Shown: positions 11,997 through 28,882, counted from the stretch's first letter. The stretch: 32,000 nucleotides of DNA from Nostoc sp. PCC 7120 = FACHB-418 (GCF_000009705.1 NC_003272.1:1290001-1322000), one strand, 5' to 3'. Notes: generated from the letters alone by a model not told the origin. A program made the numbers and translations.

Positions 11997-14192
11997 ATGC
12001 TGAAAAAACTACAAAAAAAGCAAATTTCTATAATCGCTGGTGCGGCACTGTTTGCCTTTTCAGCTGGGGCGATGGTGTCAGCACCTGAGATTGGTAAATT
12101 CTTGGGGCAATGGCTCAATGTGACTCAAAGTCAACCCCAAGATTTATCCGAAGCAAGTAGGGCGAAATCAGATGTATTTCCACTGATATCACAATCGCCG
12201 ACGGAACGAGCAGCCAAACTAGCAGAACTCTCGCAAAACTCCCGATCGCCAGATCGAGAAAGAGCGCGTTATCTGTTGGCGAGTGATTATATTGACACCA
12301 AACAAGGCCAAAAAGCCCTGGAATTACTCACGGGTTTAGAGAAAAGCTATCCTGTTCTGGCACCCTACATCTTACTAAAACAAGCACAAGCACAGGATTT
12401 ATTAGGGGAAGATGGCAAAGCTTCTGACTTGAGGCGACAAGTATTAAAACAGTATCCCAAGGAAGCGGCGGCGGTAAAAGCTATATATCTGATTGCTCAA
12501 CCAAAGCTACAAGATACAGCGATCGCGCAATTTCCTTCCCATCCCCTCACCTGGGAGATAATCAGGAAGCGCTTGTCAGAAAATCCCAATCAGCCACAGT
12601 TACGGTTAATCTTGGCTCAATATGCTTATACCCAGCCAGGGATAGTAGGGGTGTTAGACGAGCTAGGAAAACAGACAAATCTCAAACCCCAAGATTGGGA
12701 AGTGATTGGTACAGCCTACTGGGAGAACAATCAATTTCTCAAAGCGGCGAACGCTTACGCCAAAGCACCCAAAACAGCCCGTAACCTCTACCGGACTGCA
12801 CGGGGATGGCAAGTAGGCGGGAAAAATAGAGAACAAGCAATCTCTACTTATAAGCAACTAGTACAGCAGTTTCCTGATGCACGGGAAACAGGACTTGGCT
12901 TGGTACGGTTGGCAGAAATGGCAAAAAGCAACAAAGATGCCCTACCCTATCTCAACCAAGTAATTGCTAAATTCCCTGAACAAGCAAGCCAGGCGTTGGT
13001 AAAAAAAGCCGAAATCCTCACAGCCCTTAAGGATGAAAAAGCAGCCCAACAAACTTGGCAACAACTCATTACCAAATATGCCAAATCTAATGAAGCCGCC
13101 GAATATCGGTGGAAAATCGCTCTAGAGAAAGCCAAAGCCAGAGATTACACCAGCGCTTGGAAGTGGGCGCAACCAATTGTTGTCAACAACCCTAACAGTA
13201 TTTTGGCTCCCAGGGCTGGTTTTTGGTTAGGTAGATGGGCAGCAACACTAGGAAAACAGCAGGAAGCTCAAACTGCTTACGAGTACGTGATTAGCCAGTT
13301 TCCTTACTCTTATTATGCCTGGCGATCGGCAAATCTATTGGGGTTGAATGTCGGCAACTTTGATAACGTCCGTCAACTCACCCCAGAAGTAGTTCCTTAT
13401 CAGCGCCCCATCCCTCCCACAGGTTCCCCAGCCTTCCAAGAATTGTATTTACTGGGTCAAGATCGTGATGCGTGGTTGCAATGGGAGACAGAATATCTTA
13501 ATAAACAAGAACCCACAGTAGCAGAACAATTCACCGAAGGCTTGATGCGGTTAGCGAGGGGTGAATATCTGTCAGGAATTAACCTGATTTCCAAATTAGA
13601 AGACAGGGAAACACCAGAAGAACAAGCCGAATATCAGGCCTTAAGTAAACAGATTACCTACTGGCAAGCCCGTTACCCGTTTCCCTACTTGAAAGAAATT
13701 GAAAAATGGTCATCTGAGCGAGAACTTAATCCCTTGCTAGTTACCGCCTTAATGCGCCAAGAATCGCGGTTTGAAGCGAAAATCAAATCCGTTGTCGGCG
13801 CGACTGGCTTAATGCAGGTAATGCCCGATACAGCTAAGTGGATAGCATCAAAAATTCCCTTAGATATCAAGACCATTAATTTAGAGAATCCCAATGACAA
13901 CGTGATGCTAGGGACATGGTATTTAGATTATACCCATGAGAGGTATGGCAATAATTCCATGTTAGCGATCGCTAGTTACAATGCTGGCCCAGGTAGCGTC
14001 GCCCGATGGTTGAAAACTCTACCCAATCAAGACCCAGATGAGTTTGTCGAAGCCATCCCCTTTAATGAAACCAGAGATTATGTCCGTCAGGTATTTGGTA
14101 ACTATTGGAATTATCTGCGACTATATAATCCTGAAATTGCCAGCATCGTAGCTAAATATTCCGCCGAACAGCCGAAATTGCCGGAAAATTAG
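11997..14192 (+). CDS. slt: Soluble lytic murein transglycosylase (Slt70-like: superhelical TPR-like N-domain plus SLT catalytic domain)
   Basis: N-terminal signal/anchor (ISIIAGAALFAFSAGAMVSA). C-terminal SLT motifs LMRQESRFEAKIKSVVGATGLMQVMP (catalytic Glu) and AIASYNAGPG. Confidence 0.9.
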   Translation: MLKKLQKKQISIIAGAALFAFSAGAMVSAPEIGKFLGQWLNVTQSQPQDLSEASRAKSDVFPLISQSPTERAAKLAELSQNSRSPDRERARYLLASDYIDTKQGQKALELLTGLEKSYPVLAPYILLKQAQAQDLLGEDGKASDLRRQVLKQYPKEAAAVKAIYLIAQPKLQDTAIAQFPSHPLTWEIIRKRLSENPNQPQLRLILAQYAYTQPGIVGVLDELGKQTNLKPQDWEVIGTAYWENNQFLKAANAYAKAPKTARNLYRTARGWQVGGKNREQAISTYKQLVQQFPDARETGLGLVRLAEMAKSNKDALPYLNQVIAKFPEQASQALVKKAEILTALKDEKAAQQTWQQLITKYAKSNEAAEYRWKIALEKAKARDYTSAWKWAQPIVVNNPNSILAPRAGFWLGRWAATLGKQQEAQTAYEYVISQFPYSYYAWRSANLLGLNVGNFDNVRQLTPEVVPYQRPIPPTGSPAFQELYLLGQDRDAWLQWETEYLNKQEPTVAEQFTEGLMRLARGEYLSGINLISKLEDRETPEEQAEYQALSKQITYWQARYPFPYLKEIEKWSSERELNPLLVTALMRQESRFEAKIKSVVGATGLMQVMPDTAKWIASKIPLDIKTINLENPNDNVMLGTWYLDYTHERYGNNSMLAIASYNAGPGSVARWLKTLPNQDPDEFVEAIPFNETRDYVRQVFGNYWNYLRLYNPEIASIVAKYSAEQPKLPEN

Positions 14193-14241
14193 GGAATTGG
14201 GGGTTAGGAATTTTATAGCAGTTGACTGTTGCCTGTTAATA

Positions 14242-14268
14242 GTTGACGGTTGACAGTTAACCGTCAAC
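14242..14268 (+). terminator. Stem-loop downstream of slt (candidate terminator)
   Basis: gttgacggtt (14242-14251) pairs with aaccgtcaac (14259-14268), a perfect 10-bp stem with a 7-nt loop. It is 50 nt after the slt stop. There is no clear U-tract. Confidence 0.4.
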
Positions 14269-14510
14269 AAACCATATAAATGATATCCATTTATATGTAT
14301 AAATTAGTACTTATTGCCCTTGCCTTAGCGCAAAGTAATTTAATTAACTTTTAACTACATTTAATAATAAGTATAAATACTAAATAAACTAAAATATATA
14401 TACATACTATTAGGTAATTCTTATGCCATAAATACTTTAGGCTATGAGATAATTAAACGCAGAAAAAATTTGACCAAAAATCTAAATTTTATTTTTAGGG
14501 GTAAACAGTT

Positions 14511-15893
14511 GTGGGGTTTAATCCTGAGCTTTGCCGTAACGAAAGCGAAGTTGAAAGCAAACTGATTGTGCAATATTTATTACCGCAGCTAGGATATACT
14601 CCAGACACTTGGCATCAAGAAATTGCAGTTGGTAGCATTCGATTAGATTTTTTAGCCTTTGCTGCACAAGTCCTTCCCTTTGTTTTAGATGCTAACTCGC
14701 CATTGAGTGTGGTGATGGAAGCAAAGCATCCTAAGCAAAATTTAAATAATCATGTTCCCAGACTCAGGCACTATTTAACCAGTCTGAATGTTAGGTATGG
14801 TTTATTAACTAATGGTAAGGAGATAAGAATTTATGAAAAGGTTAAAAATGATGTTCAGCTAGTTTTCCAGTGTTCTGGGAAGGAGGTTGAGATAAAGTTA
14901 GAGGAAATTCAAGATTTAATCGGTCGAGAAAGTCTAAAAGAAAGACAGTTAATCGATCAATCAAAAATTAATCAAGTCGAAGTCAAAGAAAAAAAATTAC
15001 AGAATCAGGGTCAACATAGTATGAAAACAATTGCCATTTATCATAATAAAGGTGGTGTTGGTAAAACCACTGTTGCTGTCAACCTTGCGGCAGCATTAAG
15101 TAAGAAAGGGAAAAAAGTACTTTTGATTGATATAGATTCTCAGGCAAATACTACTTTTGCAACAGGACTAATTAAATTTCAATTTGATGAAGAAGACGAT
15201 TTACGTAATCAGAATGTATCAGATTTACTAGAATCAGCCGACTTTAATTTTATATCAGATGTTAAACGTCAATCTCACTATTTTAATAATCCAGAAATAG
15301 ATGTTGTTCCTTCTCACATTAACTTAATTGATAAGCAAGATAAACTAAATCAAATAGCAGTTAGTAGACCTCGGTTAATTTCTAAACTCAAAATCGTAGA
15401 AAATGATTATGACATCATAATTATTGATACTCCCCCGTCAAGAGACTATTATGCTCAAGTTGCACTGATTGCTTCTGATTATTTGATCATTCCTTCAGAT
15501 TTAAAACCATTTGCCAATCAGGGCTTGCCAACAGTGAAAAATTTTGTTAATGAGATTAATGAATATAGAGTAATGATGGGAAAATCAGCACTCCAAGTAA
15601 TAGGAGTTCTTGCTTCTAAGATTTCAACTAATGCTAAATTTTTGCAGTACACTTTTCCAAAACAAAGGGATGTAATATCTGAGCGATATGGCTTACCTTT
15701 GATGGAAGCGGTTATTTATGATAGAACTTCTCTATCAGAATGTATGAATAATTCTATGACTATTGGAGAGTTAGAATATCCAGATCCTAAATCAATTATT
15801 AAGTATGCAGAAACAAAAGCCAATGCCCAACAATCTGCTATGGAATTTGAGGTATTAGCTAAAGAAGTGTTAAACAAAATAGGAGTTAATTAA
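14511..15893 (+). CDS. Fusion protein: N-terminal HsdR_N-like PD-(D/E)xK nuclease-fold domain plus C-terminal ParA/Soj-family ATPase
   Basis: Residues 1-110 read ESEVESKLIVQYLLPQLGY...IRLD46FLAF...VVME70AK72...YGLLTNGKEIRIY. This is the type I restriction enzyme R N-terminal domain pattern with an intact D...ExK.
Residues 171-460 read MKTIAIYHNK180GGVGKT (deviant Walker A), LLIDIDSQAN (A') and IIIIDTPP (Walker B).
GTG start. AT-rich codon usage. Confidence 0.8.
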   Translation: MGFNPELCRNESEVESKLIVQYLLPQLGYTPDTWHQEIAVGSIRLDFLAFAAQVLPFVLDANSPLSVVMEAKHPKQNLNNHVPRLRHYLTSLNVRYGLLTNGKEIRIYEKVKNDVQLVFQCSGKEVEIKLEEIQDLIGRESLKERQLIDQSKINQVEVKEKKLQNQGQHSMKTIAIYHNKGGVGKTTVAVNLAAALSKKGKKVLLIDIDSQANTTFATGLIKFQFDEEDDLRNQNVSDLLESADFNFISDVKRQSHYFNNPEIDVVPSHINLIDKQDKLNQIAVSRPRLISKLKIVENDYDIIIIDTPPSRDYYAQVALIASDYLIIPSDLKPFANQGLPTVKNFVNEINEYRVMMGKSALQVIGVLASKISTNAKFLQYTFPKQRDVISERYGLPLMEAVIYDRTSLSECMNNSMTIGELEYPDPKSIIKYAETKANAQQSAMEFEVLAKEVLNKIGVN

Positions 15894-15895
15894 AT

Positions 15896-16654
15896 ATGAA
15901 GTTTTATACTGTTGATGTAAAAAATATTTCTTCTGACGTACCTGCTTCCAATTTTGTAAATGATGAGTTGAATAGCCTAGCTGATAATATTATTGTAAGC
16001 GGGGGACTTATTAAACCATTAATTTTAAAAATGTCAGGTTTAGAAGCTTATACCGTAGTAGACGGACATTTTGAATATTATGCTGCTGTGAGAGCTAGAG
16101 AAAAAAATCCTCGCCAATGTGAAATGGTCAATGCTTTTGTTATTGCACCCAATAATGAAGATAATATATCTAAGCAAGTAGCAGCTTTTAAAGAATTAAA
16201 CTTTTCAGATAAAAATCATTTAACAATAGAGCATAAAAAAGAAGTAAACAATTTAGAATCAAGTATAGTAAATCAAAAACTAGATTTATTTACAAAACAA
16301 ATTGATGATTTAAGATCAGAACTAGTACAAGAAAGACTAGAAAGACAGAAATTATATGAAGCTATAAAGGTAATTGAGAATCAAATACCTAAACAGATCA
16401 CACCATTGGAAGCATTTAATAATCTTAATTTATTGGAACTTACATTTAGGTTAAGAACATCTGGGTTTACTGATAAAAAAGCTGCTCAAGTTGTTGAGAG
16501 TCTTGATAAAGAACGTAAAAAGAGAAAATTTGAATCCTTGAAAGATGTAACAGAACGAGTAACCATTGCAAATGGTAAAAAACGAGTGAAGGGGATAAGC
16601 GGCGATAAAATGGTAGATATTGTTGATACTTGGTCACGTATCTTATTCACTTAA
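15896..16654 (+). CDS. ParB/Srx-fold N-terminal domain protein with a central coiled coil and a C-terminal ComEA-like helix-hairpin-helix
   Basis: The start lies 2 nt after the upstream stop, with an aggag RBS.
LNSLADNIIVSGGLIKPLILKMSGLEAYTVVDGHFEYYAAVRA aligns to the ParB box (L..SI...G...P..V.....Y.II.GERR.RAA), but the arginines are absent.
Residues about 125-165 are heptad-like (DDLRSELVQERLERQKLYEAIKVIENQ).
The C-terminus NNLNLLELTFRLRTSGFTDKKAAQVVESLDKERKKRKFESLKDVTERV...GISGDKMVDIV resembles ComEA HhH. Confidence 0.6.
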   Translation: MKFYTVDVKNISSDVPASNFVNDELNSLADNIIVSGGLIKPLILKMSGLEAYTVVDGHFEYYAAVRAREKNPRQCEMVNAFVIAPNNEDNISKQVAAFKELNFSDKNHLTIEHKKEVNNLESSIVNQKLDLFTKQIDDLRSELVQERLERQKLYEAIKVIENQIPKQITPLEAFNNLNLLELTFRLRTSGFTDKKAAQVVESLDKERKKRKFESLKDVTERVTIANGKKRVKGISGDKMVDIVDTWSRILFT

Positions 16655-16699
16655 CTTTTATCTATATCTGGGTTTTAATGATAATTTAGGGCTAGTAAT

Positions 16700-16906
16700 A
16701 TGGATAATCTAGAATCCAAAATTATTGAAATTCTAAAGCATGGCACTCCATTAAGAGCAGTAAATATCGCTCAGATGCTAGGAGTAGAAAGACGAGAAGT
16801 AAGCATAGCCAATACCGCTTATCAAAAAGGACAGTTAAGCTTTTGGAAGGCTAATCGTTTAACGATCGCACTAGTATCTGTTGCCTTAAATCTTGATACA
16901 TTCTAG
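16700..16906 (+). CDS. Small winged-helix-like ORF (68 aa), possibly decayed
   Basis: LESKIIEILKHGTPLRAVNIAQMLGVERREV looks like helices 1-3 of a small wHTH. The C-terminal 35 aa have no recognisable character. The ORF end overlaps the convergent GT2 gene by 4 nt. Confidence 0.35.
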   Translation: MDNLESKIIEILKHGTPLRAVNIAQMLGVERREVSIANTAYQKGQLSFWKANRLTIALVSVALNLDTF

Positions 16907-17859
16907 TTTGATTGCCTCAACTTCATCAACTTTAATTTTACCGCCCTACCCCAGACTTTAGGTATAGCGTATATTTGCCAGAGGATCAGATTCCACAAAT
17001 ACCCATATTGCGGATAACATTTAAGCAACAATAAGTCTGCTATTACGTGTAATCTAGTTTCTTTTAAGGAATTATCTCTAACAATATATCTAATTTGTTC
17101 TGGTTTTGGTGTAGCGTGACCAATTATGACTTCTTTTTCATAGAATTTTGCTTGCACAAATAAACCCAGCATTCTATCCAAATTCCATAAAGGAATCCAA
17201 GTTAAAGCACCAAAAATATTCATTGCGGTTGATAATTCGTAGAGTGCAGCTTTCACTCGCTCTGTTTTCCAAATTCTGTTATTAAAGTTTTCAAAATGAA
17301 TCCCGCTTTGGTCTTTTCTTTGATGCCAGGGGAAGATTATATGTCTAATATCTACCGATTTATCTAAGGGAGCGATGGGAACTTCTAATAGACCTTTGTA
17401 GTTCCCTTTTTGGAAGGGAAAAGGATTTTCCGGTGTTTTCTTACATATTTCTAGTTGTTCAACATCAGGATTTGGCTCCCAATCTTTTTGAATTCGTACT
17501 TCATCGGTATATTGAATATTTTCAATCTTTAATCTTAAAACCCAACTTTCAGGAAAGAGCCGGAAATATTTAAATGTTAAATCTAAAATATCAGGATGAA
17601 CATAATCATCATCATCTAATGCGAGAACATACTCACTTTCAACGTTGAGTAAACCTGTAAATCTTTGAATCACTTCACCTTTATAGGGACTTCTGAGATT
17701 CTTTATCCTAGAATCATCTATATTTCTAATAGTTCCTTCCGGTGGATAAACTAAAATAAATTGGACATTTCCTTGAATTTTTAATAATTGCTCTAACCAA
17801 TAATCTGTAAAATTGCCGCGTGTTGGAGTAACAATTGTTAAAAGAGGGTTGCTATTCAT
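16903..17859 (-). CDS. Family 2 (GT-A) glycosyltransferase
   Basis: N-terminal LLTIVTPTRGN and an acidic DxD-type motif (LALDDDDYVHPD). AT-rich. Confidence 0.75.
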   Translation of the reverse strand: MNSNPLLTIVTPTRGNFTDYWLEQLLKIQGNVQFILVYPPEGTIRNIDDSRIKNLRSPYKGEVIQRFTGLLNVESEYVLALDDDDYVHPDILDLTFKYFRLFPESWVLRLKIENIQYTDEVRIQKDWEPNPDVEQLEICKKTPENPFPFQKGNYKGLLEVPIAPLDKSVDIRHIIFPWHQRKDQSGIHFENFNNRIWKTERVKAALYELSTAMNIFGALTWIPLWNLDRMLGLFVQAKFYEKEVIIGHATPKPEQIRYIVRDNSLKETRLHVIADLLLLKCYPQYGYLWNLILWQIYAIPKVWGRAVKLKLMKLRQSN

Positions 17860-18037: not shown

Positions 18038-19267
18038 ATGCGAATCCTGATGCTCTCTTCTACCTTTCCTTATCCGCCTAGTCGTGGTGGTACGGAAATT
18101 AGAACTTTTAATTTACTTAAATACCTCCAGCAAAATCATGATGTGACTTTAGTGACGCAGTATAACAAAAGCGTGACAGATGCTGAAGTGGCAGAACTAC
18201 GTAAATATGTCAGTGAACTGCTGATTTTTCCCTTACCACCGGAACCCCAGTCGAAAAATGCCGTTGCTAAATTGTTAGGGAAAACTGGACGTTTTCTAGA
18301 GTCAGTGGGGAAGGCGACACCACCCAATGTTCTTTATCGCTATTCGCCAGAAATTCAAGCTTTAGTTGATAGTTGCGTTCAAGCTAAAAAATATGATGTG
18401 ATTACTTGTGAACATAGTGTGAATGAAATTTATATCCGCCCAGAATTTCGTCATAGTGTAACTACCGTTGTAGACGTTCACAGTTCAGTTTATGGCTGGA
18501 TTCGTGACCATTTAGAAATGGGTGCAGCACAGAATGTAATACGCGATCGCCTATATCTTTCTCTGGTGCTGAAGCGTTACGAACAGCGATACTGTAGTAA
18601 ATTTTCTCAGATTGTGGTGACAACCCAAGACGATCGCCAGGAATTTCTCAAACTCCGCCCCGATATTGATATTAAAGTCATTCCCAACGGTGTAGATTTA
18701 GAATTGTTTCCCAATCGTTGCCAAGACCCAGCCGGACATAGTTTAATCTTTGTGGGGGCAATGGACGCTTCTCATAACATTGATGCAGCACGTTTTTTTG
18801 CTGTCGAAGTTTTACCACAACTACAACAGCGTTATCCTGACGCGACATTTAGTATTGTCGGCGCTAGACCAACGCCAGAAATTGAAAATCTCAAGAATAT
18901 TCCAGGGGTAATAGTTACCGGTCGTGTGGCTTCGATGGTAGATTATCTGCATCAATCTACCGTGTGTGTAGTGCCGTTACGTACAGGCTTTGGCATTAAA
19001 AATAAAACTTTAGAAGCAATGGCGGCTGGTGTGCCTGTAGTAGCTAGCGATCGCGGTTTAGAGGGGTTAGCCGTTGATGGTGATAATACAGCTTTAGCAG
19101 CATTGCGAGCCAATAAGCCAGCAGAATATGTTGACGCTATTAGTCAATTATTTGAGAATACCCAACTGCGATCGCAATTATCCCACAATGGCAGAAAACT
19201 AGTAGAAGCTGAATTTACCTGGGAGATAGCTGGTATGCGTTATGAGCAAGTTTGTTTGAATAGGTAA
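18038..19267 (+). CDS. Family 4 (GT-B, Glycos_transf_1) glycosyltransferase
   Basis: MRILMLSSTFPYPPSRGGTEIRTFNL N-terminus. C-terminal half has LIFVGAMD...GRV...VCVVPLRTGFGIKNKTLEAMAAGVPVVAS (E-x7-E region). Confidence 0.9.
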   Translation: MRILMLSSTFPYPPSRGGTEIRTFNLLKYLQQNHDVTLVTQYNKSVTDAEVAELRKYVSELLIFPLPPEPQSKNAVAKLLGKTGRFLESVGKATPPNVLYRYSPEIQALVDSCVQAKKYDVITCEHSVNEIYIRPEFRHSVTTVVDVHSSVYGWIRDHLEMGAAQNVIRDRLYLSLVLKRYEQRYCSKFSQIVVTTQDDRQEFLKLRPDIDIKVIPNGVDLELFPNRCQDPAGHSLIFVGAMDASHNIDAARFFAVEVLPQLQQRYPDATFSIVGARPTPEIENLKNIPGVIVTGRVASMVDYLHQSTVCVVPLRTGFGIKNKTLEAMAAGVPVVASDRGLEGLAVDGDNTALAALRANKPAEYVDAISQLFENTQLRSQLSHNGRKLVEAEFTWEIAGMRYEQVCLNR

Positions 19268-23083: not shown

Positions 23084-26000
23084 ATGGCAACCGAACAGTT
23101 AACTAGAGAAAGCGATGAATTAGACTTAAAACAGCTATTAAAAACCTTAACTGCTGTCAAAAAAGGTGATTTCTCTGCTCGGATGCCCATAGACCAAACA
23201 GGTGTAGCTGGTAAGATAGCCGATACGCTCAACGATATTATTGACCAGAATGAGCGCATGGCAGCAGAGCTAAAGCGCATTAGTAATGTTGTGGGCAAAG
23301 AAGGCAAGATTACTGAACGGGCTTCTTTGGGAAATGTGCGTGGTTCTTGGTCAGATAGTGTTAATTCTGTCAATACTCTCATTACAGATTTAGTCCAGCC
23401 GACGGCAGAAACTACGCGGGTAATTCGGGCTGTAGCTAATGGGGATTTATCACAAACGATCGCCACAGAAATTGATGGTAGACCCCTAAAAGGTGAATTT
23501 CGCCAAACTGCCAATATAGTTAACACGATGGTGACGAGGCTGAGTTCCTTTGCGGGTGAGGTGACGCGGGTAGCCAGAGAGGTGGGAACTGAGGGGAAAC
23601 TAGGGGTGCAAGCCGAAGTCCAAGGTGTGGCGGGGACTTGGAAAGACTTAACTGATAATGTCAACCTGATGGCGGGGAACCTCACCGGACAAGTGCGGAA
23701 CATTGCGGAAGTGGCGACGGCGATCGCTAATGGTGACTTATCGAAGAAAATTACTGTGGATGTGAAGGGGGAAATTCTGGAGTTGAAAAACACCGTCAAT
23801 ACAATGGTGGATCAACTTAACTCCTTTGCATCAGAAGTTACACGGGTGGCGCGGGAAGTAGGGACGGAAGGGAAGTTAGGCGTACAAGCAGAAGTCAGAG
23901 GGGTGGCGGGTACTTGGAAAGACTTGACAGATAATGTGAATTTGATGGCGGGGAACCTGACAGCCCAGGTAAGAAATATTGCCGAGGTGACAACGGCTGT
24001 AGCTAATGGTGACTTGTCGAAGAAAATTACTGTCAATGTCAAGGGCGAAATTTTGGAGTTGAAAAACACCGTCAATATCATGGTGGATCAACTTAATTCC
24101 TTTGCATCAGAAGTTACCAGGGTAGCGCGGGAGGTAGGCGCGGAAGGAAAATTAGGCGGTCAAGCAGAAGTCCGAGGGGTGGCGGGTACGTGGAAGGATT
24201 TGACTGATAGCGTCAACTTCATGGCGGGGAGTTTGACGGCGCAGGTAAGAAATATTGCCGAAGTGACAACGGCGGTAGCTACTGGCGATTTGTCGAAAAA
24301 AATCACCGTGGATGTGAAGGGCGAAATTTTGGAGTTGAAAAACACTATTAATACAATGGTGGATCAACTTAATTCTTTTGCATCAGAAGTTACAAGAGTG
24401 GCGCGGGAAGTAGGGACGGAGGGGAAACTAGGCGTACAGGCGGAAGTGCGCGGGGTGGCGGGGACGTGGAAGGATTTGACCGATAATGTGAATTTGATGG
24501 CGGGTAACCTGACGGGACAGGTGCGGAATATTGCCGAAGTAGCGACAGCGATCGCCAATGGTGACTTATCGAAAAAAATTACTGTGGATGTGCGGGGCGA
24601 AATTTTCGAGTTGAAGAACACCATCAATATCATGGTGGATCAACTGAGTTCCTTTGCATCGGAAGTTACTAGGGTGGCGCGGGAAGTAGGCAGCGAAGGA
24701 AAGTTAGGTGTACAAGCCGATGTTCGGGGTGTGGCGGGTACGTGGAAGGACTTGACCGACAGTGTAAATTTCATGGCGGGGAGTTTGACGGCACAGGTAA
24801 GAAATATTGCGGAAGTGACGACGGCGGTAGCTACTGGCGACTTATCGAAAAAAATCACCGTCGATGTGAAGGGCGAAATTCTCGAATTAAAAAACACCGT
24901 CAACACGATGGTAGATCAACTCAACTCCTTTGCGTCGGAAGTCACCAGGGTAGCGCGGGAGGTGGGAACAGAAGGGAAATTGGGCGTACAAGCAGAGGTG
25001 AAGGGCGTAGCGGGGACGTGGAAGGACTTGACCGACAGCGTTAACTTTATGGCGGGGAGTTTGACAGCCCAGGTAAGGAACATTGCCGAGGTGACGACGG
25101 CTGTAGCCAATGGCGACTTGTCGAAAAAAATCACCGTGGATGTGAAAGGGGAAATTCTGGAGTTGAAAAACACTATTAATACAATGGTGGATCAACTCAA
25201 TTCCTTCGCCTCAGAAGTCACCAGGGTAGCGCGGGAGGTAGGCAGCGAGGGGAAATTGGGTGTACAAGCCTACGTCCGGGGTGTGGGTGGTACGTGGAAA
25301 GATTTGACAGATAACGTTAACTCGATGGCGGGGAACCTCACAGCCCAGGTCAGAAATATTGCCGAAGTCACGAAGGCGGTAGCCAATGGCGACCTGTCGA
25401 AGAAAATCACCGTGGATGTGAAAGGGGAAATCCTCGACTTAAAGAACACTATTAATACAATGGTGGATCAACTCAGTTCCTTTGCCTCAGAGGTGACGCG
25501 GGTGGCGCGGGAGGTGGGAACCGAGGGCAAATTAGGCGGTCAAGCCTTGGTGCAAGGTGTGGCGGGGACGTGGAAAGATTTGACTGATAACGTCAACTCA
25601 ATGGCGGGGAACTTGACAGCCCAAGTGCGAGGGATCGCCAGAGTGGTGACGGCGGTGGCGAATGGCGACTTGAAACGCAAACTGATGTTAGATGCCAAAG
25701 GGGAAATTGAAACCTTGGCGGAGACAATTAACGAAATGATTGACACCCTAGCCACCTTTGCCAATCAGGTGACGACAGTGGCGCGGGAAGTGGGGATAGA
25801 AGGAAAATTAGGTGGTCAAGCCAAGGTTCCAGGGGCGGCGGGGACATGGAAAGATTTGACCGACAACGTAAATGAGCTAGCGGCTACCCTCACCACCCAA
25901 TTAAGAGCGATCGCCGAAGTGGCTACAGCCGTCACCAAGGGCGATTTAACCCGTTCCATCGCTGTAGAAGCCCAAGGAGAAGTGGCAATTCTCAAAGACA

Positions 26001-28882
26001 ACATTAACCAGATGATTGCCAATCTGCGGGAGACAACCCAGAAAAATACCGAACAAGATTGGTTAAAGACCAACCTCGCCAAATTCACCCGGATGCTGCA
26101 AGGTCAGCGCGACTTAGAAACCGTATCAAAACTCATTCTCTCAGAACTTGCACCACTGGTAGGCGCACAACACGGCGTATTCTACTTAATGGAAGGGGCA
26201 GAAAATCAAAGCTACCTACAACTACTCAGCACCTATGCTTACCGGGAACGCAAACATCTAGCTAACCGCTTCCAATTGGGTGAGGGTTTAGTTGGACAAT
26301 GTGCTTTAGAAAAAGAGCGCATTTTGTTAACGGAAGTGCCGAGTGATTATGTAAAAATTAGCTCTGGTTTAGGCGAAGCCAACCCCCTAAATGCAGTAGT
26401 CTTACCTGTATTATTTGAAGGACAAGTGACGGCGGTAATTGAACTAGCCTCCTTCCGCCGCTTTAGTGAAATTCATTTGACATTCTTCGACCAACTCACC
26501 GAAAGTATTGCGATCGTTCTCAACACCATCGCCGCCTCGATGCGTACCGAAGAACTACTCAAACAATCCCAATCCCTCGCCGAGGAACTACAAACCCAGC
26601 AAAGCGAACTCCGCGAAACCAACCAGCGTCTAGAACAACAAGCCCAATCACTCAAAGCTTCAGAAGATTTACTACGAGGACAACAAGAAGAACTACAGCA
26701 AACCAACGCTGAGTTAGAAGAAAAGGCAGAATTGTTAGCTTTACAGAAAAAAGAAGTAGAGAGGAAGAATCGGGAAATTGAACAAGCCAGAAGGTCTTTA
26801 GAAGAGAAAGCCGAACAACTCGCCCTCTCATCCCGCTATAAGTCTGAATTCTTGGCGAATATGTCCCATGAACTGCGGACACCTTTAAACAGCTTATTAA
26901 TATTGGCGAAATTGTTGACAGATAACGTCGATAGTAATTTGACAGCTAAACAAGTCGAATACAGCCAAACAATTTACTCAGCCGGTAATGAACTATTAGC
27001 ATTAATTAACGACATTTTGGATCTAGCCAAAATTGAATCGGGAACTATGTCCATCCATGCGACCCCAATTCCCTTGTCAGAGTTGGCTGAACAAATTGAA
27101 CGCGGCTTTGGGCAAATAGCGCAAAATAAAGGACTGACTTTTGCAGTCGAATTAGCCCCTGAGTTACCAACCACCGTTAATACAGATATCAAACGCCTAC
27201 AACAGGTATTAAAAAATCTCCTCTCCAACGCCTTTAAATTTACAGAACGTGGAGAAGTCCGCCTCAGGATTGAAGTAGCCAAGCCAGGATGGAATCCCAA
27301 CCAGCAACCCTTAAACCCGGCTCAAAATGTCATTGCTTTTGCTGTAAGTGATACAGGTATTGGCATTGCAGCCGATAAGCAAAAGATTATCTTTGAAGCA
27401 TTCCAGCAAGCTGATGGTACTACCAGCCGTAAATACGGCGGTACGGGATTAGGCTTGTCTATTAGTAGAGAAATTGCTCATCTTTTGGGTGGTGAAATCA
27501 AACTTACCAGCCATCCTGGTCAAGGTAGTACATTTACCTTCTATTTACCGCAATTTAGTCCTGAATCTACGTTGAACCATGCAGACGCGATAAATCGGTT
27601 TGGTGCTGAATCTACGTTGACCCAAATAGACGCGATAAATCGCGTCTCTACAGGGTACGACTCAATTGTTTTTGACGATCGCACCACAATTACCAATCCA
27701 TCAGCAGATAATAACATTCTGCTAATTATCGAGGATGATGTTAATTTTGCCCGTATCTTAGTAGATATGGCACGACAACACGGGTTCCAGGTACTCACTG
27801 CCCAAAGTGGTACAGCCGGACTGAAACTAGCCAAAGACTTTCAACCAATGGCGATTTTATTAGATATCCGCTTACCGGAAATGGACGGTTGGACAGTCCT
27901 AGACCGCTTGAAACATGACCCCACTACCCGCCATATTCCCGTACACATCATGACCGTGGAGGAAGGAAGGCAACGGGGTTTACAATTAGGGGCGATCGCC
28001 TATTTACAAAAACCAGTCACCAGTGAAGCCATATCCGAAGCCTTAGACAAAATTAGAGGTTTCGTAGAACGCCGGGTGAAAAATTTACTAGTGGTTGAAG
28101 ATGACGAACTACAACGTCAAAGCATTGTCGAACTGATTGGTAACAGTGATGTAGCCACAGTTGCTGTCGGTACAGGTGCAGCCGCCTTAGAAGCGATTCG
28201 TACCCAGCAGTTTGATTGCTTAGTCCTTGATTTAGGCTTACCTGACATGACAGGTTTTGAACTCATGGAACAGATTAAGCGAGAAGCCAACGGCGCAACC
28301 TTACCAATTATTGTTTACACCGGCAGAGAAATCAGCAAAAATCAAGAAACAGAACTCAGACGGATTGCTGAGACAATTATCGTCAAAGATGTGCGATCGC
28401 CCGAACGTCTCCTAGATGAAACCGCCTTATTCCTCCACCGCGTCCAAGCAAACTTACCCACACCCAAACGCGAAATCCTCGAACAACTCCATTCTCAAGA
28501 TTATTCCTTAGTTGGTAAAAAAGTTTTAATTGTAGACGATGATGTCCGCAACATCTTCGCCCTCACCAGTATGCTGGAACGCTACCAAATGCAGGTGATA
28601 TATGCTGAAAATGGTAGAGAAGGAATTAGTTTATTAGAAAATACATCAGATATTGATGTGGTGTTAATGGATGTGATGATGCCCGAAATGGATGGTTACG
28701 AGACAATGCAATTGATTCGGAAAAAAGAGCAATTTAAAGCCTTACCTATTATTGCCCTCACCGCCAAAGCCATGCAAGGCGATCGCGATCAGTGCATCGC
28801 CGCCGGCGCTTCTGACTACATCGCTAAACCAGTGGATACAGAACAACTACTGTCTTTATTGCGAGTTTGGCTCTATCGTTGA
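23084..28882 (+). CDS. Poly-HAMP / GAF hybrid sensor histidine kinase with three C-terminal receiver domains (1932 aa)
   Basis: Domain order:
- A diverged HAMP pair.
- Nine 92-aa HAMP-pair units.
- GAF ([25 protein letters not shown]...[17 protein letters not shown]).
- A long coiled coil.
- H-box ([14 protein letters not shown]), N-box ([12 protein letters not shown]), G1 (DTGIGI) and G2 (GGTGLGLSI).
- REC1 ([12 protein letters not shown]), REC2 ([12 protein letters not shown]) and REC3 ([12 protein letters not shown]...TAKAM). Confidence 0.95.
23543..26026 (+). repeat. Nine in-frame tandem repeats of exactly 276 bp (92 aa, HAMP pair) inside the kinase gene
   Basis: Units start at 23543, 23819, 24095, 24371, 24647, 24923, 25199, 25475 and 25751. 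Each begins (S/N/A)(S/T)FA(S/G/N)(E/Q)VT(R/T)VAREVG and ends ...(M/Q)(V/I)(D/A)(Q/T/N)L. Units 1-7 are near-identical and units 8-9 are more diverged. I verified the boundaries against the nucleotide sequence at 23543, 23819 and 26026. Confidence 0.95.
27563..27647 (+). repeat. Duplicated 35-nt motif with a hairpin core, embedded in-frame in the kinase-REC1 linker
   Basis: gaatctacgttgaaccatgcagacgcgataaatcg (27563-27597) and gaatctacgttgacccaaatagacgcgataaatcg (27608-27642) are 45 nt apart. They encode [12 protein letters not shown] and [12 protein letters not shown]. The second copy completes the hairpin agacgcga-taaa-tcgcgtct (27628-27647). Confidence 0.8.

Follow-up and report, generated by a model that had tools for sequence, protein, structure and literature searches.

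Proteins of the ParA family assemble as ATP-sandwich dimers that bind nonspecific DNA, and their partner proteins stimulate ATP hydrolysis. Type I and type IIG restriction enzymes cut DNA with a head of the HsdR_N type, and in the immigration control region of E. coli, allelic and deeply divergent hsd genes are found at a fixed chromosomal site. We know of no described system that joins a restriction-type nuclease head to a ParA switch. Such a combination is predicted for a gene pair in a 32,000-nucleotide stretch of DNA (the window) from Nostoc/Anabaena sp. PCC 7120. The window belongs to the 6.41-Mb chromosome, not to a plasmid. The first gene encodes a fusion of an HsdR_N-type head, a linker and a Soj-like ATPase, and the second encodes a partner with a ParB-like head and a putative DNA-binding tail. 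Literature searches on the fusion, on PDC-M28 and on cyanobacterial ParA surveys found no description of the fusion or of the pair. Our preferred reading, which we hold tentatively, is that the pair is an ATP-gated, DNA-bound nuclease under the control of its cognate partner and takes part in conflict with phages or other foreign DNA.

The pair is laid out as follows, with positions counted in the window; each entry ends with its source.

14497..14501, + strand: AGGGG, a Shine-Dalgarno-like sequence 9 nucleotides (nt) before the GTG start (direct reading of the sequence).
14511..15893, + strand: fusion gene, 460 amino acids (aa), GTG start, encoding a PD-(D/E)xK head, a variable linker and a Soj-like ParA ATPase (open reading frame (ORF), Pfam).
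14511..14930, + strand: head, residues 1-140, of the HSDR_N/HSDR_N_2-type PD-(D/E)xK group, the constant part of the fusion (Pfam, alignment).
14646..14726, + strand: putative catalytic codons D46 (14646-14648), E70 (14718-14720) and K72 (14724-14726), catalysis being predicted (alignment).
14931..15020, + strand: low-complexity linker, residues 141-170, variable in length, with a predicted local distance difference test score (pLDDT) below 50 (alignment, model).
15021..15893, + strand: ParA/Soj-type ATPase, residues 171-460, the variable part of the fusion (Pfam, Foldseek).
15048-15068, + strand: deviant Walker A, K180GGVGKT (motif).
15896..16654, + strand: partner gene, 252 aa, translationally coupled to the fusion gene (ORF).
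15896..16180, + strand: partner residues 1-95, a ParB/Srx-fold domain with DGHFEYYA and no GERRxRA arginine patch (Pfam, Foldseek, hidden Markov model (HMM) alignment).
16253..16384, + strand: partner residues 120-163, one long helix (DSSP and pLDDT).
16391..16654, + strand: partner residues 166-252, a ComEA/DUF655-like (HhH)2 module with a beta-hairpin insertion (profiles, helix pattern).

The fusion and the partner are real, conserved genes and not chance ORFs. Within a sequence type, the ratio of nonsynonymous to synonymous substitution (dN/dS) is 0.09-0.29 for both genes, indicating purifying selection. ORF coordinates place the partner start 2 nt after the fusion stop in PCC 7120, as stated in the original prediction, which was made by a model from the sequence alone. 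At 56 orthologous loci the junction is a 1-nt overlap (TAATG) in 44 and a 2-nt gap in 11. Evidence for the GTG start comes from the upstream AGGGG and from the fusion N-terminus, M-x-FNPExCRNESEVE, which is kept in all the cyanobacterial orders aligned; the 443-aa NCBI model is, therefore, truncated. That model, WP_199315781.1, begins 17 codons late (window 14511-14561), and the residues omitted from it (FNPELCRNESEVESK) rank among the most conserved of the fusion family.

The head is assigned as an HsdR_N-type PD-(D/E)xK domain and a predicted nuclease, and the profile matches support this well. In the full-length fusion, HSDR_N_2 matches residues 17-117 with 27.2 bits (cutoff 25) and HSDR_N matches with 25.7 bits (cutoff 25.1); when the head is scanned alone, the scores are 27.9 and 30.2 bits, respectively. 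Both families match 11/11 diverse cyanobacterial heads, and weaker matches are found to MmeI_N, PDDEXK_3 and Cas4. D46 (in IRLDF), E70-A71-K72 (in EAKHP) and T100-N101 are invariant in an 11-sequence alignment across orders. The head Asp and the E-x-K are also kept in distant members of 25-38% identity, including Thermosynechococcus tll1395; thus the triad is conserved across homologues. The predicted secondary structure (helix 11-26, strand 38-40, strand 67-71, helix 78-91, strand 96-100) has an order that fits alpha-beta-beta-beta-alpha-beta, with residues 44-64 at pLDDT below 50. This head shares 30-35% identity with those of type IIG enzymes and N6-methylases encoded by plasmids and haloviruses, and its nearest mobile-element relatives are type IIG enzymes. 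A sequence search of the PDB with the head profile gave nothing significant, only one spurious match to a designed repeat.

The remainder of the fusion is a ParA ATPase that, by its sequence, appears to carry every ATP-binding and dimerisation motif, an assignment that is well supported. The AAA_31/ParA family of Pfam matches residues 171-352 with 179 bits. The Walker A, K180GGVGKT, and the Walker A' and Walker B aspartates, D207/D209 and D306, are invariant or nearly so in members that range from 25 to 100% identity, the sole exception being the relative P0371. ORF, Pfam and motif alignment thus agree with the original prediction that a single 460-aa ORF joins an HsdR_N-like head with D46 and E70-A-K72 to a ParA/Soj ATPase. 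A Foldseek search with the AlphaFold model of the fusion (pLDDT 63) places Soj, ParA and pSM19035 delta on top, with a probability of 1.00, E values of ~1e-10 and a TM score (target) of up to 0.76; the list is filled by ParA matches and the head is not matched separately. The ATPase is structurally closest to Soj, and Cyanothece McdA is among the matches, below the Soj and ParA structures. ATP-dependent dimerisation and nonspecific DNA binding would be expected of it as a member of this family.

Some relatives differ from the PCC 7120 fusion. P0371 (L086:5001-6431), a full-length relative of 29% identity on a 5.7-Mb ENA contig that also has multihaem cytochrome and CheX genes, is apparently from outside the cyanobacteria and has no downstream partner gene. 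Its motifs are degenerate: the head Asp is Asn, the head Lys is lost, and GK of the Walker A is GT. In Planktothrix agardhii (L081:6001-7503) one in-frame linker stop (…QLTEN*SQS…), present on several contigs, cuts the fusion into a head of 193 aa and an ATPase of 290 aa that restarts at MKVIAVYHNKGG, and another Planktothrix (P0268) reads through the linker. Two longer relatives, P0352 (650 aa) and P0363 (1066 aa), have ~220 and ~760 additional residues, respectively, N-terminal of the fusion-like region.

The N-terminal domain of the partner has the ParB/Srx fold, as had been proposed from its sequence. ParB_N scores 21.9 bits in the PCC 7120 partner, below the 26.3 cutoff, and matches 32/32 partner homologues (best E 1.4e-8). 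The AlphaFold model (pLDDT 82) is compact over residues 1-95, disordered over residues 104-121, and continues as a long helix and a helical C-terminal module. Foldseek retrieves Noc, ParB, KorB, PadC, SerK and Srx with a probability of 1.00 and E values from 4e-6 to 1e-2. In the HMM alignment, the CTP-binding GERRWRA of Noc is aligned with GHFEYYA of the partner, a replacement that is conserved family-wide. Since the arginine patch is replaced, the partner is not a CTP-clamp ParB. No HTH or RHH family was detected in the partner. No parS-like array, that is, no iterated repeat family, was found in 14100-17000; distant sites were not searched. These results support the departure from canonical ParABS architecture noted in the original prediction.

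The helix at partner residues 120-163 is probably a coiled coil or dimerisation element, judging from the model. In the C-terminal module, HHH_6 matches 30/32 and DUF655 26/32 partners, with scores under the curated cutoffs (best E values of 3.9e-4 and 2.2e-5, respectively). The partner profile matches AF1531 (2i5h) with an E value of 0.03, and the helix pattern agrees with (HhH)2. This tail is presumed to bind DNA without sequence specificity. The Planktothrix partner has Rho_N/SAP/HeH in place of the HhH tail, so that the constant feature of the family is a ParB-like head with some nonspecific DNA-binding tail. In Thermosynechococcus vestitus BP-1 (L085:6361-7149), the gene downstream of tll1395 encodes 262 aa and overlaps the fusion by 8 nt. 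Its product has an HhH-like C-terminus (…VPGLTIDEAQVVIGRLERYRKHQGGRKFCSVDEL…) that is recognised by hhalign, and neither Pfam nor hhalign recognises a ParB head in it; the head may have been replaced, or may be very divergent, in the Thermosynechococcus lineage.

The domain composition bears on two other functions. McdAB is a cyanobacterial precedent for a ParA ATPase encoded ahead of a small partner that has a central helix (PMC7182216), and Cyanothece McdA is among the structural matches of the fusion. By analogy, the pair might position something other than DNA, for instance carboxysomes or another organelle, with the partner as cargo adaptor. This is very improbable, because the partner has a folded ParB/Srx head and HhH motifs, whereas McdB has no ParB-family similarity (PMC7182216); McdA has no nuclease head, Soj and ParA rank above it, and there are no carboxysome genes nearby. 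Alternatively, the ComEA/DUF655-like (HhH)2 tail and the weak Cas4 and PDDEXK_3 similarity of the head could belong to a module of DNA repair, recombination or uptake. An ATP-regulated, structure-specific nuclease would then be recruited by the ComEA-like HhH protein to transforming DNA or to inter-chromosome intermediates. A chromosomal, conserved locus agrees with such a role; however, it is improbable, since this head most resembles those of restriction enzymes, the neighbourhood has no recombination or competence genes, and the hypervariability described below is not expected of a repair enzyme.

The pair is widely distributed in cyanobacteria. A genome scan of a species-representative set gave 443 related loci, and the best 80, all from Nostocaceae, were analysed. 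The phylum-wide distribution is drawn from named fragments (the head homology search gave mostly gene fragments) and from four distant loci that were inspected. There are more than 100 fusion orthologues in Nostocaceae, with 77-97% identity. The head family is found in Nostocales, Planktothrix, Microcoleus, Trichodesmium, Pseudanabaena, Chamaesiphon, Chroococcidiopsidaceae, Trichothermofontia and Thermosynechococcus. Fusion and partner are adjacent at 79 of the best 80 loci, the exception being at a contig end, and are adjacent also in Planktothrix, Trichothermofontia and Thermosynechococcus; the two genes are conserved neighbours. In 72,556 plasmids, there were no partner matches and no head matches of the same family, and neither protein family was found in the 2.9 million viral contigs of IMG/VR. 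A plasmid partition locus was rejected on the plasmid result and the chromosomal location, so the possibility that homologues occur only as partition loci of plasmids does not apply. Carriage by a prophage or virus was likewise rejected by searches of phage records and viral contigs.

The genomic setting is that of housekeeping genes. The shared context was found by de novo clustering of flanking ORFs; the PCC 7120 neighbours, when used as probes, suggested no synteny. The conserved order in Nostocaceae is PurD, a HAMP-PAS histidine kinase, a Zn-ribbon protein, the ATPase-partner segment, a GT2 and a 339-aa gene, and an epimerase, an MFS transporter and an SDR are other recurring neighbours. 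In PCC 7120 the rearrangement is confined to the upstream side of this segment, and the rest of the window is ordinary chromosome. There are no defence genes in the window and no defence-island setting among the recurring neighbours; instead of the defence island that had been expected, PurD, a histidine kinase, glycosyltransferases and the like surround the pair. The fusion, the partner and the recurring neighbours are free of methylase, HsdS and helicase domains.

The original prediction had placed the locus in a compositionally foreign block and had considered, among other roles, a maintenance module left by a decayed element. The guanine-plus-cytosine (GC) content is indeed low, 33.6% in the fusion and 30.2% in the partner, as compared to 41.6% in the window. 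However, the orthologous segments have 34.0% GC as compared to 41.5% in their flanks, and this is so in all orthologues, within conserved housekeeping synteny. Low GC is thus a family-wide trait and not a mark of recent acquisition. A leftover partition or maintenance module of an integrated plasmid, integrative and conjugative element or prophage would agree with the low GC relative to the surroundings, the loss of the usual upstream synteny in PCC 7120 and the degradation of a third gene there (see below). It does not agree with 443 related cyanobacterial loci, housekeeping synteny conserved in Nostocaceae, the lack of plasmid or viral relatives, two intact genes under purifying selection, or low GC in all orthologues. 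Furthermore, no integrase, transposase or tRNA-type boundary genes are found among the recurring neighbours. Distribution, synteny, selection and the shared low GC effectively refute the decayed mobile element, and we regard this origin as hardly credible.

The main alternative is an atypical cyanobacterial system for nucleoid organisation or distribution of chromosome copies. ParA gradients would form on the polyploid nucleoid, the HhH-bound partner would serve as activator, and the head would be an extra DNA-binding or processing module. This would explain the housekeeping-like retention: the pair spans the phylum, is chromosomal, occupies a single locus amid housekeeping genes, and is absent from the plasmids and phages searched. 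The ATPase is closest to chromosomal Soj, the partner combines a ParB fold with DNA-binding motifs, and the genes are translationally coupled. Cyanobacteria have been described as having no classical ParA/B/S segregation mechanism (PMC7766704), leaving a gap that the pair might fill. On the other hand, the partner has no HTH or CTP-binding motif, no parS-like array lies in 14100-17000, and a strictly conserved head triad is unexpected for a purely DNA-binding domain. Nor does this explanation account for the presence of allelic types in genomes that are ~98% identical. It is possible but, on balance, unlikely.

These allelic types are the most distinctive property of the locus. The ATPase domain and the partner constitute a sharply bounded cassette of ~1.6 kb, which exists as ancient, co-inherited types and recombines onto a constant head and constant flanks; this conclusion is well supported. 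The flanks and the head are ~93-99% identical between genomes. Where the flanking kinase is shared (53 loci, 88-100% identity), divergence of the kinase has a rho of 0.06 with that of the fusion and 0.04 with that of the partner, as against a rho of 0.82 between fusion and partner. Partner identity is bimodal, either 30-50% or 70-99%. Single-linkage grouping gives at least five types (sizes 36, 21, 13, 4, 2, plus singletons), which co-vary between the ATPase domain and the partner and not with the genome. Head residues 1-140 have a median identity of 93% and a rho of 0.03 with partner type; for the ATPase, from residue 169 to the end, the median identity is 51-71% and the rho is 0.78-0.85.

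The left boundary of the cassette is inside the fusion gene, in the linker region, at about nt 500-700 of the gene. Nucleotide profiles across types run at 94-100%, then 40-84%, then 88-100%, with sharp edges. For example, identity between loci L022 and L056 is 94-100% upstream and up to about nt 600-700 of the fusion gene, drops to 72-84% over the ATPase domain and to 40-63% over the partner, and is again 88-100% from ~170 nt past the partner stop. Between PCC 7120 and its close relative T. variabilis, identity is 96.9% for Slt, 95.6% for GT4, 97.1% for the head, 73% for the linker, 72-84% for the ATPase and 50.8% for the partner. Synonymous third-position identity of the head is 87%, whether within or between types, a value shared by the flanks. 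For pairs of different types, only 57% is reached in the ATPase domain and 60% in the partner; thus the variable segment consists of anciently diverged alleles and is not merely a fast-evolving protein.

Divergent, swappable ATPase and partner types on a constant head are what is typically seen in genes that are in conflict with viruses. We know of no housekeeping segregation proteins that occur as deeply divergent, swappable allelic types. The hsd alleles of E. coli may, by analogy, be taken as a precedent for a defence locus that is syntenic and yet hypervariable.

A second line of evidence comes from a phage of Anabaena. The best PDB match of the partner profile is 9K3A chain B, residues 1337-1406, with an E value of 5.5e-9, ahead of Noc (1.8e-4) and Spo0J. 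This chain is gp27 (1717 aa) of the podophage A-4L/A4, and its gene is at KF356198.1 2038-7191 (L087). The gp27 domain is ~40% identical to the partner head (residues 1-95). Together with three other ejection proteins, gp27 forms part of the pre-ejectosome, and it contacts phage DNA; the structure paper makes no mention of its ParB-like domain (PMC12002296). A-4L is the only phage match to the partner among 50,697 records, and no other phage relatives of the gp27 domain were found in these records. Since its closest relatives are the host partner family, the sequence suggests that the domain was captured from the host, and it may act as a mimic derived from the host. ParB/Srx domains are also common among injected "polyvalent" proteins (PMC5512222).

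The cassette alleles and the partner-like domain of gp27 lend indirect support to the idea, put forward in the original prediction, of a defence system or a nucleoid-tethered nuclease. We infer each step of the mechanism that an ATP-gated, partner-controlled nuclease would require. In the ATP state, the ATPase would dimerise and bind DNA nonspecifically, as other ParA proteins do. The dimer would bring two nuclease heads together on the DNA, and the nuclease would thus be gated by ATP. The partner, held on DNA by its HhH tail, would use its ParB-like head to contact the ATPase, which would then hydrolyse ATP and be released. Such release would limit the dwell time of the nuclease on resident DNA coated with partner, and would leave DNA without partner, such as an entering phage genome, exposed. 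Phage pressure on the ATPase-partner interface would then diversify the interface, the DNA-facing head remaining constant, and the partner-like domain of A-4L gp27 would be one example of that pressure.

A number of points weigh against this reading: i) the PD-(D/E)xK assignment of the head comes from profiles and motif conservation, with no separate structural match; ii) the discrimination of self from non-self through partner coating is speculative; iii) defence systems tend to be patchy in distribution and to cluster in islands, and are seldom retained phylum-wide at one locus flanked by housekeeping genes; iv) PADLOC-DB 2.0 gives the fusion only a partial P-loop match, to PDC-M28B (E 2.7e-10, residues 114-212), with no full-length match for the fusion and no match at all for the partner; v) the correlation between fusion and partner may reflect physical linkage in a swapped block and not functional co-evolution; and vi) the ParB-like domain of gp27 could serve another role, and its best match, to the partner type of PCC 7120 itself, leads only marginally (57.8/54.3 bits vs 37-53 for the others). 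The search of NCBIfam returned no equivalog or system-level match for either the fusion or the partner. As anticipated, therefore, the pair matches no named system beyond the P-loop.

A stronger form of the nuclease reading, which we consider doubtful, is that the pair represents a new class of immunity. The ParA switch would gate a restriction-type nuclease, partner coating would spare the resident DNA, phages would inject a partner mimic (gp27), and balancing or diversifying selection would keep the specificity types.

The pair is, in any case, a phylum-wide ParA-ParB-like candidate either for nucleoid organisation in polyploid cyanobacteria or for a new immune mechanism. The constant head and the swappable ATPase-partner types make cognate and non-cognate pairing accessible to experiment, and PCC 7120 and A-4L, both genetically tractable, are a ready host-virus pair. 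A defence system, if that is what the pair is, would matter for cyanophage ecology and for the engineering of Anabaena/Nostoc strains.

A third gene is found within the variable segment at some loci (17/80 by tblastn, 12 by clustering), in several cassette types. The full-length gene (L024:9175-9855, L045:9175-9930) encodes 226-251 aa that begin with a winged-helix-like region and end in a hydrophobic helix, with a low-complexity linker in between. In PCC 7120 it is represented by the following feature:

16700..16906, + strand: remnant of the third gene, 68 aa (sequence comparison).

An in-frame stretch between two "RREV" motifs has been lost from the interior of the remnant, and its end is truncated.

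Other features of the window lie outside the pair. Scans for promoters and terminators gave matches at chance level only. A near-perfect 27-bp palindrome, GTTGACGGTTGAC-A-GTTAACCGTCAAC, at 14242-14268 is the sole repeat-like feature of 14100-17000. It begins 50 nt past the stop of the SLT gene and precedes the fusion start by ~240 nt; no T-run follows it, and it could be a terminator or an operator. The orthologues of SLT (11997-14192) and GT4 (18038-19267) are ~1,600 protein accessions apart in T. variabilis (ABA22661, ABA24296), which places the PCC 7120 cassette at a rearrangement junction. At 16903-17859, on the - strand, a weak GT2-like gene (Pfam below cutoff), which shares the low-GC block of the pair (33.9%), occupies the place of the well-conserved Nostoc GT2, and resembles only one of these (L044, 59%). 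At 23084-28882, on the + strand, a 1932-aa hybrid histidine kinase with ~10 tandem HAMP/HAMP_2 domains, GAF, HisKA/HATPase and three receiver domains coincides with a region in which both GC skew (up to 0.35) and AT skew are strongly positive.

Compared to known systems, the pair resembles ParABS (Soj/Spo0J) in having a ParA with a deviant Walker A and a coupled downstream partner with a ParB/Srx-fold N-domain. It differs in the N-terminal PD-(D/E)xK head of its ParA and in the partner, which has no GERRxRA or HTH and presumably binds DNA through an (HhH)2 or SAP/HeH tail. It differs also in the lack of a parS array in 14100-17000 and in the hypervariability of ATPase and partner between near-identical genomes. 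McdAB is from the same phylum and likewise consists of a ParA-family ATPase and a downstream partner with a central helix, but McdA is headless, with no nuclease, the partner studied here has a folded ParB/Srx head and an HhH tail, and its locus has no carboxysome context.

Gabija GajA, Septu PtuAB, PARIS AriAB, Wadjet and PDC-M28 share with the pair the concept of an ATP-dependent DNA-binding or dimerising module combined with a nuclease. Gabija, Septu, PARIS and Wadjet use ATPases of the ABC, OLD or SMC type with TOPRIM or HNH, whereas the fusion would use a ParA/MinD-family ATPase with PD-(D/E)xK. The polyvalent ParB/Srx proteins of phages are comparable to A-4L gp27, which carries a domain of this type. 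DdrB-like polyvalent versions keep the active-site arginine (PMC5512222), whereas gp27 reads DNHAIYE and the partner DGHFEYY. In addition, the closest relatives of the gp27 domain are the host partner family and no other phage relatives were found.

The head of the fusion resembles those of type I HsdR and of type IIG (MmeI-like) enzymes in its HSDR_N and HSDR_N_2 matches above cutoff, its weaker MmeI_N match and its D...ExK triad. These enzymes bear an SF2 translocase or a methyltransferase, in contrast to the ParA dimerisation switch of the fusion, near which there is no HsdM, HsdS or methylase gene. A parallel to the cassette pattern is the hsd locus of the E. coli immigration control region, likewise a fixed syntenic site with deeply divergent alleles of a DNA-targeting system and sharp edges against conserved flanks. 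The proteins are different, and the boundary of the cyanobacterial cassette is intragenic, so that a constant head is joined to variable ATPase-partner modules.

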